Below, one piece after another: positions 10,443-13,121 of a stretch of DNA of 64,000 bases (position 1 is its first letter; each line of letters begins with the position of its first letter). The notes beneath the pieces were generated by a model that ran no database searches, was not told the origin of the DNA, and saw only the letters and a program-made list of their open reading frames with translations. Location of the stretch: the NCBI GenBank assembly GCA_963699155.1, contig OY969414.1:1803757-1867756 (forward strand), written 5' to 3'. The translations under genes were made by a program, and so were the position numbers. This stretch comes from an uncultured Chlamydiales bacterium (GTDB taxonomy: Bacteria; Chlamydiota; Chlamydiia; Chlamydiales; JAAKFR01).

Positions 10443-13121
10443 ATGCTTGTTCTAATGAATTTATTGGAAAGCCAAACTCAAGAGATTCAGAAGCGTTGTG
10501 AGCGGGTTTTTGCAGAAGAGCTGGGAGCTACCGATGCCACTCAAACGCAAACTCTTCTGATTAAATGGGAATGCTCTCAACAAGCAGCTGGCACATTTGT
10601 CTTTTACCTATTGAGCTTTACAGGTCTCCATCGCAAAGCCAGCCTTTTTCTCGAGGAGATGATTTCCCACTGGCTTCTACCTGAGGCTAATTTGCAGATT
10701 ATCTCTTTCAAAAGCCTCATATTCAACCTTTCTCGATTTCAACAGCCCATCTCTTACATCGAGATCGTAGTCCCTATTTATGAGACAAAAACTGCTAAAC
10801 TCATTCAACTTCAACTGCCTGCGTTTTCCGAAGAGATTAAAAAAGGGACCTCTTCAGTGGAAATTGCTCATCAAATTCTAGAGACAAAGCGCTTTTCGCT
10901 GTCGATTGTGACAGCCCATGAAGATTCTCAGAGCGCTCTCAACCTGAGTTTTGGGTTGTCTTCCTCAGATTCAGAGGAGTTTACGCAGCAAACCTTGGGT
11001 TTTTCGTCCGAAGCAAATGGCCAGGGGCCCTTTGCGAGGACGAAAAGCACAAGGGGTGCAAGTAAACTCCCTGAAGCTGAGGGAGAAAAACCCAAAACTC
11101 AGGTCCATGAGGAGTTGAGCAAATCACCCTCCTTCTCTCTCTTCCTCCCACGCACTGAAGATGAGCTCTTACGTGGCATGATCTCCTTAAGTGGAGAGCT
11201 GAAGCAGCCGGGTGACCCTCCCCAAGTGCTTATCTCGTTCCAGCAGCAGCTTCCTGCTACCCTTAAATTTCAGCTGATTTTATTGAGGGCGCTCAAAGCA
11301 GAGAATGAGCCTCCTCCCCTCACCGAATTCATTCATAAGCTCCCTAGTCACATGCGCTTCATTCCTGAAAAGAGAGCCATTATGGGAAATCTCCAAGGGA
11401 AATTTCTCAAAGAAATGAACCTTTTTACTCTTCAACTCGACAGCAGACTCTTTATGAGGGGTAACCACTCCATCGACCTGCTCAAAGCGCGTCAAACCCT
11501 CTGTCGTGCTCTTGAAAAAATGGTAGGCCCCTTTAAAGACCATAGCGGAACGTTTTTTCATCAAGCGGATAATCGCACAGTGGATCAAATAGAAGCCCTC
11601 TCTTCCCAGAGCCTTAGGCTGCATTTACCGAGAGCAACTCACACTCTCGATCCCAGGGTCGGAGGTTACCGTGTCTCAGGTGTCGTTATCAGGATGCTCT
11701 TTGAAGGACTTTGTCGTGTTAACCCAGAGGGGCAGATTGAACCAGCTTTAGCTCAAACGATCACCCTTTCTCCCGATCAGAAAGAGCTCCTCATCACTCT
11801 GAAAGAGAGCTACTGGTCGAATGGCTCTCCCTTGACAGCCCACGATTTCGCCTATGCCTGGAAGCAGATCCTCGATCCCAAAATTTATTTTCCCTACTGT
11901 TTTTTGTTCTTTTGCATCAAGAATGCGGAAGCTGCGAAGAGAGGAGAGATCTCACTCAGCGAGGTGGGCATCAATGTAAAGGATGATTTGACCCTTGCCA
12001 TCACCCTCGCCTATCCTACACCCTACTTTTTGGAACTCCTAGCTAACTGGATCTTCTCTCCCCTCTGCCGCGAGCTCGAACAGAAACATCCTGGCTGGGC
12101 TTACCACAGCGGGTCTACCCATATCAGCAATGGACCCTTTAAACTCGAACTTTGGAAGATGAATGACGAGCTCCATTTGGTGAAAAATCCCCTTTATTGG
12201 GATGCCCATGAGGTAAAAATAGACTTTATCAAGATCTCAATCATCGATGATGAGGAAAAAGCGATCGAGGAATATCTGAAAGGCAATTTAGATTGGGTGG
12301 GAGACCCTCTCCATAAAATTCCTCCAAAGGCGATTCAACTCCTCAAAGAAAAAAACGAACTCATTACCGACACCTCCTATTACGGCCTCTTTCTCCTGCA
12401 AATGAATCTGCATAAAACCCCCTTTCAGAATGCCAATATTCGCAAGGCGCTTGCCTATGGCACCTCTCGCAAGAAGCTGCTCGAGACACTTCACAGTCAA
12501 GAAGATCTCCCCGCATTTGGATTCACTGCGAAAGAACAACCCTTTCCAAGGGCATTTGTCGATGGGGATCAAGAGCGGGCGATTGTTTTATTTGAAAGAG
12601 GGCTCAGAGAGCTAGGGATGAGCCGAAAAGAGCTTCCCCCACTGATCTTCTCGCATAGCGATCTCGAAGAGCATAGGGTGATCACTTATGCGCTCGCAGA
12701 ACAGTGGAGCTCTCTTTTTGGATTCGAGGTGAAGTATAAAAAGTATCTCTGGAATGGCTATTTCGAGTCGTTATTTCAAGAGGAGCATATGATCGGCGGT
12801 CTTGTCTGGTACCGTCGTTTTGACGATCCTCTCTACTTCTACGAATTCTTTATCTCGCGGCCCTATGCTCTCACATTATCACAGTGGAAAGATGAGGCCT
12901 ACGTAGAGTGGATCAATGCTGCTAAACGAGCGACAGGGCCAGGTGAGAAGGTGCACTCTCTTTTCCAAGCAGAGCAGCTCCTTCTCGATGCCATGCCTGC
13001 AATCCCTCTCTTCTATCAACATTTCCGCTATGTCAAAAACCCCCATCTCGATCGCATGATCCTCTCTAATTGCCAGCAGATCGATTTTCGAAGAGCCTGC
13101 TTTAACAAGGAAGGAAGATGA
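10443..13121 (+). CDS. Peptide ABC transporter substrate-binding protein (family 5) with long N-terminal extra domain and an in-frame palindromic insert
   Basis: C-terminal TLDPR...LFEGL...WSNGSPLTAHDFAYAW...SNGPFKL...KNPLYW. About 390-aa N-terminal extension with no evident signal peptide. Confidence 0.85.
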   Translation: MLVLMNLLESQTQEIQKRCERVFAEELGATDATQTQTLLIKWECSQQAAGTFVFYLLSFTGLHRKASLFLEEMISHWLLPEANLQIISFKSLIFNLSRFQQPISYIEIVVPIYETKTAKLIQLQLPAFSEEIKKGTSSVEIAHQILETKRFSLSIVTAHEDSQSALNLSFGLSSSDSEEFTQQTLGFSSEANGQGPFARTKSTRGASKLPEAEGEKPKTQVHEELSKSPSFSLFLPRTEDELLRGMISLSGELKQPGDPPQVLISFQQQLPATLKFQLILLRALKAENEPPPLTEFIHKLPSHMRFIPEKRAIMGNLQGKFLKEMNLFTLQLDSRLFMRGNHSIDLLKARQTLCRALEKMVGPFKDHSGTFFHQADNRTVDQIEALSSQSLRLHLPRATHTLDPRVGGYRVSGVVIRMLFEGLCRVNPEGQIEPALAQTITLSPDQKELLITLKESYWSNGSPLTAHDFAYAWKQILDPKIYFPYCFLFFCIKNAEAAKRGEISLSEVGINVKDDLTLAITLAYPTPYFLELLANWIFSPLCRELEQKHPGWAYHSGSTHISNGPFKLELWKMNDELHLVKNPLYWDAHEVKIDFIKISIIDDEEKAIEEYLKGNLDWVGDPLHKIPPKAIQLLKEKNELITDTSYYGLFLLQMNLHKTPFQNANIRKALAYGTSRKKLLETLHSQEDLPAFGFTAKEQPFPRAFVDGDQERAIVLFERGLRELGMSRKELPPLIFSHSDLEEHRVITYALAEQWSSLFGFEVKYKKYLWNGYFESLFQEEHMIGGLVWYRRFDDPLYFYEFFISRPYALTLSQWKDEAYVEWINAAKRATGPGEKVHSLFQAEQLLLDAMPAIPLFYQHFRYVKNPHLDRMILSNCQQIDFRRACFNKEGR
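10941..11105 (+). repeat. 165-bp palindromic element located in frame within a CDS
   Basis: Terminal IR acctgagttttggg...cccaaaactcaggt; highly similar to intergenic 48151-48318. Confidence 0.9.

Follow-up and report, generated by a model that had tools for sequence, protein, structure and literature searches.

The window analysed here, a 64,000-nucleotide stretch of the single-contig genome of an uncultured Chlamydiales bacterium (2,399,326 bp, 47.5% G+C), carries on its plus strand an 892-amino-acid open reading frame (ORF; 10443-13121) in which an N-terminal extension precedes an OppA-type solute-binding domain. Embedded in the extension, at 10941-11105, is a 165-nt near-perfect palindrome (AACCTGAG...CTCAGGTC) that reads through without a stop codon as residues 167-221 of the protein, 55 amino acids in all. 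It is a subfamily A copy of a MITE (miniature inverted-repeat transposable element) family, in frame on the plus strand. Its left terminal inverted repeat (10941-10958, plus strand, AACCTGAGTTTTGGGTTG) is common to all family members and to the left end of the IS982-family element in locus L093, described below; its right terminal inverted repeat (11089-11105, plus strand, AACCCAAAACTCAGGTC) has T as the last base in most copies. The palindrome aligns over its full length, in both orientations, with a sibling at 48151-48318 (86% identity, E 1e-46), an intergenic copy between two convergent ORFs and the most perfect palindrome of the family in the genome, and is 92% identical to siblings at genome positions 1421824 and 184391. 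A first-pass annotation of this DNA had reported a stop-free, in-frame 165-bp palindrome matching the copy at 48151-48318, and we recovered both the match and its quoted peptide exactly.

RNA folding of both copies is far above chance expectation. The window copy reaches -110 kcal/mol against a shuffle mean of -48 (z -16) and the sibling -128 kcal/mol against -42 (z -21), with 0 of 200 shuffles equal in either case. Rfam returned only a chance microRNA match for the window element (E 0.21), and a plasmid collection held no match to it.

A census of the genome, combining a profile built from five close copies with a terminal-repeat search, identified 13 full copies that fall into three subfamilies of 164-167 bp plus two 240-bp variants and are 85-92% alike. 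Both ends of every full copy consist of AACCTGAGTTTTGGGTT and its complement as terminal inverted repeats, and the copies are small, numerous and without a transposase gene. Solo or truncated ends are also present, among them one in the window (21890-21993, plus strand), recovered by profile and end search and comprising the left ~105 bp of the 240-bp variant. The element is a non-autonomous, hairpin-forming MITE, and only 1 of its 13 full copies in this genome lies inside a gene.

Flanks were compared for 37 different copies, 24 of them taken from relatives' loci and the other 13 from this genome. In 18 the AACC...GGTT ends are bordered by a perfect direct repeat of 3 bp, and in 4 more by one of 4 bp; when the flanks were re-paired at random in 2,000 shuffles, the count averaged 2.5 and never exceeded 9, placing the 3-bp duplication far above chance. 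A TA target duplication, our first by-eye reading, was ruled out by the same flank analysis. The modal element length is 165 bp (17 of 37 copies), and because the 3-bp duplication completes 168 bp, or 56 codons, an insertion never shifts the reading frame. Stop codons are a separate matter: one of the six frames of the window copy is free of them, and no other copy in this genome has a frame open throughout. The perfect palindrome of the family, as at 48151, has stops in all frames, and the coding-competent form differs by one base in the right arm, which moves a TAA out of frame.

Of 41 related genomes searched by DNA, 14 contain the element (this genome being included in the count), with many matches in G007, G015, G017, G023, G003 and G001; the closest foreign copies, 88% identical, are in another genus. 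When the order was sampled evenly, 4 of 201 genomes were positive with the peptide as query. Scanning species-representative genomes with the 18-nt end returned records mostly titled as chlamydial metagenome-assembled genomes (MAGs), and 31 of 68 chlamydial-labelled loci held a near-full element. The 12 loci with other labels comprised nine with the bare 18-mer only, two with a real element and one insertion sequence; by our arithmetic, ~17 chance 18-mer matches are expected in that collection.

Several copies have features of their own. Mini-elements of 50-69 bp, little beyond the two terminal repeats, occur in chlamydial MAGs (L079, L081, L094, L119 and L132) and make up 11 of 47 end pairs, with a degenerate one in this genome at C1:339074-339108. 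The sibling at 48151-48318 exactly occupies the gap between its convergent neighbours: the TAA of the plus-strand ORF (47704-48150) abuts its left end, and the TAG of the minus-strand ORF (48310-48972) lies within its right terminal repeat, making the last two codons of that ORF element-derived. Outside the window, the copy at C1:830574-830740 sits directly 5' of a 490-aa membrane-protein ORF, which we take to be ComEC-like, with the same frame open upstream of the first ATGs. This is probably a leader insertion that a gene caller could call as an N-terminal extension.

To see how far the encoded peptide extends beyond this gene, the 55 residues were searched against 1.84 billion representative proteins; a further 48 proteins matched at E <= 0.001, and 24 of these reached E <= 1e-10. 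Together with five from a first homology search, one of which was in both lists, these formed a set of 52 that we classed by the position of the block. It is internal in 19 proteins of at least 150 aa, lies within 40 residues of the C-terminus in 5 and within 40 residues of the N-terminus in 9; another 16 are short ORFs of under 150 aa that gene calling probably placed on intergenic copies, and 3 with fewer than 31 aligned positions were dropped. The in-frame peptide occurs in about 30 unrelated predicted chlamydial proteins, with sharp borders running from an N-L-S-F-G start to a K-T-Q-V end. Pfam families among the hosts (31 proteins scanned) include protein kinase, PP2C, tyrosine phosphatase, UDP-glucose pyrophosphorylase, superfamily-1 helicase, TolC-like proteins, NAD-glutamate dehydrogenase, KdpC, O6-methylguanine methyltransferase, TsaE, shikimate kinase and rRNA methylase.

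Three of these hosts make the insertion visible at the residue level. In the KdpC host, residues 7-93 and 154-230 align with residues 11-100 and 112-190 of E. coli KdpC in solved structures, a clean insertion. The same is true of the O6-methylguanine methyltransferase host, in which residues 81-114 and 174-221 align with chain residues 73-106 and 108-155 and the catalytic PCHRV motif is retained. For the kinase host P0059 (477 aa), the orthologue in the present genome (515330-516595, an open frame of 422 aa) preserves the empty site: there ALST is followed directly by ISGKADVW, whereas P0059 reads SLTTAI, then the block NLSVG...KTQV, then ISPKADLW. The P0059 insert has an Ile codon at either border, as predicted by the 3-bp duplication. 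Taken together, these comparisons support an insertion process that operates in this chlamydial lineage in the manner of the Rickettsia palindromic elements (RPEs). Among the peptide-bearing proteins is also P0068 (G015:C178:1335-1499), a 378-aa chlamydial ORF with a Pfam GATA zinc-finger match (E 3e-9), which has the MITE peptide at residues 76-130 and a weaker second copy at 229-272.

The parent of the MITE is an IS982-family insertion sequence. In L093, a 1,023-bp element (54-1076) with the ends of the MITE encloses a 304-aa transposase ORF that scores 281 bits against the NCBIfam IS982 model NF033520 (cut-off 130) and 259.7 bits against PF13612. The right end of the MITE directly follows the transposase gene in L093, L194 and L195; in G015 and G023, two genomes rich in the MITE, the transposase genes it follows are 92% and 85% identical to that of L093. 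A decayed 1-kb copy with both ends is present in G003, of the same genus as the present genome (locus L190 of that genus holds the decayed copy). A whole-genome search of the present genome found no match to an L093-type IS982 transposase. By these sequence comparisons the parent belongs to related chlamydial genomes and is absent from this one, and the element itself is an old, now immobile, IS982-derived MITE. L093, the only intact two-ended parent observed, lies on a 3,987-bp contig whose record title names a Thermoplasmatales archaeon MAG; given that the ends and the transposase agree with those in chlamydial genomes, the contig is probably misbinned.

Other candidate parents were rejected: IS630 (DDE_3) and IS1182/IS5 (DUF772) have no match in this genome, and a 1,417-bp IS3-like element beside the truncated MITE at 21890 is unrelated. 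The IS3-like element (window 22626-24039, genome 1826382-1827795) contains orfA and orfB and lies ~630 bp from the truncated copy at 21890-21993. It looks recently active: ~14 genome copies are 99.5-100% identical, in contrast to the 85-92% among the MITE copies, and a single divergent copy stands at 70%.

Within the host ORF, all of whose parts are on the plus strand, residues 1-153 form an alpha/beta module, N1 (10443-10901), homologous to module 1 of long orthologues, and residues 230-373 form module N2 (11130-11561), homologous to their module 3. A predicted disordered linker, residues 154-229 (10902-11129), lies between the two and holds the MITE peptide together with a probable 12-aa relic of a lost helical segment (IVTAHEDSQSAL, 10905-10940, on modest evidence). 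The OppA-type solute-binding domain occupies residues 390-892 (11610-13118); residues 431-803 match SBP_bac_5 in Pfam at 186.8 bits (cut-off 32.4), and Foldseek matched the domain to B. subtilis OppA (8are_A, template-modelling score 0.94, E 3e-49). The 396-aa N-terminal extension matched no Pfam family, with nothing meaningful in Pfam even at E <= 10. It is shared with the long orthologues (1,130-1,200 aa) and with stand-alone proteins of ~640 aa found across the order. N1 (residues 6-152) is 34% identical to P0002, and N2 is 44-46% identical to P0002, P0003 and P0005.

Alignment with these homologues indicates that the host protein has lost material at the site of the element. Between query residues 154 and 228, the homologues have 52 + 119 (~171) conserved residues, nearly invariant in length across a 59-sequence alignment, and the host ORF has 73 aa in that place: the 12-aa relic, the 55 residues of the MITE and a small remainder. 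A second segment of ~137 aa is missing from the host ORF between residues 385 and 400. The 55-aa block itself occurs in 0 of 111 homologues of the host protein. The window copy is flanked by ctc and cat, which form no 3-bp target duplication and fit the deletion of one flank. Judged from these alignments, the window copy is not a simple insertion into an intact protein and appears to replace a lost conserved segment.

Structural models agree with this picture. The AlphaFold2 model of the query has a mean predicted local distance difference test (pLDDT) score of 85.4, with residues 1-153 and 230-373 folded; block means are 70-94 in N1, 82-94 in most of its blocks, and mostly 79-95 in N2. Scores drop below 50 at 154-211, 213-218 and 227-229, and block means across 154-229 range from 25 to 50. 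In the model of orthologue P0002 (mean pLDDT 87.6), four alpha/beta modules with helical spacers precede the binding domain, and the first unit missing from the query falls between low-confidence linkers at 157-160 and 343-348. Read together, the models predict that the host protein begins with a folded module and not with a leader, and that the MITE peptide makes up most of a disordered hydrophilic linker where a helical spacer and a module once stood. Both structure searches were filled by the binding domain and returned no fold match for the N-terminal region. A language-model search (Atlas) of that region pointed to the ACT and helical-motif domains of large NAD-glutamate dehydrogenases (scores 0.75-0.88), a lead only. 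The N-terminal region (10443-11630; also in P0002 and P0131) is fused to the OppA domain with no evident leader, an arrangement that suggests a candidate cytoplasmic ligand sensor.

The first-pass annotation had placed the element inside a peptide-binding protein, likened it to an RPE, and expected the block to be missing from orthologues and to map to a surface loop. The protein does have an OppA-type domain, and the insert lies outside its SBP_bac_5 match, in the N-terminal extension. The likeness to RPEs is borne out by a mobile palindromic family that, searched genome-wide, has 13 full copies (one within a gene) and stands in frame in unrelated proteins; it does not extend to the window copy as an insertion, which replaces ~171 conserved residues and has no target duplication. 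Absence from orthologues was confirmed, none of the 111 homologues having the block, and the model places it in a predicted disordered linker between two folded modules.

We consider it likely that the locus arose by insertion of an IS982-derived MITE together with adjacent deletions, leaving the peptide as a passenger linker. A transposase acting in trans, no longer found in the genome, would have inserted the MITE into DNA for the N-terminal extension of a chlamydia-specific fusion protein, which in intact relatives consists of four alpha/beta modules with helical spacers followed by the OppA-type binding domain. The insertion would have added 168 bp, or 56 codons, without a frameshift, and with one of the six frames of the subfamily stop-free the ORF would have survived. 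Deletions beside the element, during or after insertion, may then have taken most of the landing unit, that is, a helical spacer and module 2. The 55 MITE residues would now form most of a ~75-aa disordered hydrophilic linker from module 1 to module 3. In our reading, the peptide is a passenger that is tolerated while the region is being reduced in the genus, and not a gain of function.

Several observations weigh against this account, and some of them lend themselves to a different one. The 12-aa relic, paired with IICAHYLFQKAL of P0003 in both MAFFT alignments (A2 and A3), rests on 6 of 12 identities, a modest basis; the AlphaFold confidence of N1 and N2 reflects alignment, not function; and the relatives compared give no order of insertion versus deletions, the DNA of the closest one, P0004, being found in neither metagenome_contigs nor genome_contigs. 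The same-genus genome G002 (L018, C1:1455000-1466000) keeps the gene order of TreS-Mak, binding protein and second OppA paralogue and lacks the entire N-terminal region, its binding protein being 523 aa, and P0004, the closest database relative, lacks N1. The region is therefore dispensable in the clade and may be decaying here too. N2 stands out in addition, with an N2/binding-domain identity ratio of 0.98 against 1.32 in controls (5-95% range 1.22-1.42), a sign of relaxation. Finally, the 892-aa ORF starts only 25 bp from the start of a divergent ORF, and no promoter-like site was found for it. That neighbour (7233-10418, minus strand, 1,061 aa), which we take to be a fused trehalose synthase/maltokinase-like (TreS-Mak-like) protein, may itself start a few codons further in, as the alignment with G002 suggests.

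Some of these observations, along with the two or three large conserved segments that are missing and the lack of a target duplication, could mean that the first ~390 codons are a dying remnant, that the binding domain is the only functional product, translated from an internal start if it is made at all, and that the MITE lies in an untranslated or meaningless leader whose open frame is a passing accident. We regard this as unlikely. At 47.5% G+C, 396 codons remain open upstream of the binding domain, and the insertion and every deletion preserve the frame. The ancestral N-terminus is retained, aligning with orthologues from residue 6, and N1, measured against the binding domain, shows the same degree of conservation as in intact orthologues (median identity ratio 0.66 versus 0.71 in 293 control pairs). 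An impression from three orthologues that N1 evolves faster failed against the same control pairs, in which only N2 deviates. No Shine-Dalgarno-like motif precedes the in-frame ATG, GTG and TTG codons at residues 246-380, and the next ATG, at residue 418, is already inside the binding domain. From this sequence evidence, the ORF is most likely still translated from its ancestral start, and translation of the full ORF seems rather more probable than its loss.

The peptide might instead have been put to use: with module 2 gone, a flexible hydrophilic spacer joining modules 1 and 3 could be of value and be kept, as protein, under purifying selection. This would agree with the missing segment matching one complete structural unit between linkers in the orthologue model, with a disordered peptide predicted to join two confidently folded modules, and with the window copy being the one fully open copy of the genome. 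The folding energy of the window copy, however, is within the range of the intergenic copies (about -72 to -127 kcal/mol), a retention that neutral persistence of a young or slowly decaying element predicts, and no relative carries an insertion at this site; we hold exaptation to be very improbable. That the repeat was born in this gene and seeded the intergenic copies, or is an assembly artefact, is for practical purposes refuted: nothing was found in its favour beyond the thinness of the junction support (one 220-nt soil-metagenome DNA contig, identical over 10975-11194, that may come from the source sample), and it is opposed by the absence of the block from all 111 homologues, the separate 3-bp duplications of other copies, the IS982-family ends and the presence of the element in 14 of 41 related genomes. 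A search for RNA runs containing the gene returned none. For soil-metagenome DNA, three runs of a single study yielded only scattered contigs of low depth that leave the left junction uncovered and contain no empty allele of the site.

Returning to the passenger-linker account, we put forward more tentatively, and with somewhat more doubt than confidence, a wider proposal drawn from the sequences: that in environmental chlamydiae a frame-neutral MITE cassette has repeatedly added a disordered 55-aa segment to real, expressed proteins (kinases, phosphatases, KdpC, a DNA-repair methyltransferase and TolC-like proteins among them), serving here as a linker in place of a lost domain. If true, intracellular bacteria would have a second lineage in which MITE insertion is a general means of remodelling proteins, with a parent transposase that is known and testable. 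The process is open to testing through the IS982-family parent, the measurable 3-bp duplication, and genes that occur in related genomes both with and without the insert. These results also carry a warning for annotation, as about one-third of the peptide-bearing database proteins are short ORFs over intergenic copies and some long proteins contain 55 residues of mobile DNA. In the host gene, the element is a marker of a region that is losing its domains one by one within a genus.

In-frame palindromic repeats have been mostly a Rickettsia curiosity with scattered cases elsewhere, and the same behaviour is now seen in another phylum of obligate intracellular bacteria. In-frame MITEs and IS982-derived MITEs are already known; their occurrence in chlamydiae appears undescribed, as our literature search, which covered sources other than subscription journals and closed supplements, found no description of such an element there, and the accessible text of PMC10969869 and PMC5896051 does not mention chlamydiae. 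Among IS982-related elements, the closest parallel is MITECca01 of a Cardinium endosymbiont, described in the accessible text as a non-autonomous element of ~240 bp that shares inverted repeats with an IS982-family parent (PMC9769881). Both are IS982-derived MITEs of intracellular bacteria, likened by description and not by sequence, and the term 'in-frame' is absent from the main text of that article. Unlike IS982-family insertion sequences themselves, the window copy has no transposase, and none of that family was found in this genome.

QMITE1 and QMITE2 of Coxiella burnetii offer a second parallel, being MITEs of an intracellular bacterium that, in the accessible text, sometimes lie in frame mid-ORF or at the 3' end, contributing residues or a stop codon to the ORF (PMC5896051); the 5 C-terminal and 9 N-terminal database cases described above resemble them. 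The element, host phylum and parent are unrelated to those of the QMITEs, and here one conserved 55-aa reading with sharp N...V borders recurs in many hosts.

The nearest likeness in behaviour is to the RPEs (RPE-1 to RPE-10), multi-copy palindromes of ~150 bp that stand in frame in unrelated genes and encode a hydrophilic peptide; a 2024 review describes in-frame palindromic elements as unusually frequent in Rickettsia, treats the RPEs as the extreme case of in-frame MITEs and also cites Coxiella, enterobacteria and Anabaena (PMC10969869). Unlike RPEs, the present family belongs to Chlamydiota, by record titles, and the two are likened by behaviour, not by sequence. A parent of the IS982 family and a 3-bp target duplication are identified here, and we know of no parent for the RPEs. 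The window copy also departs from them in that it is the only one of 13 full copies in a gene and replaces a conserved segment rather than extending an intact protein. We do not file the element as an RPE; by analogy, it appears to work like one.

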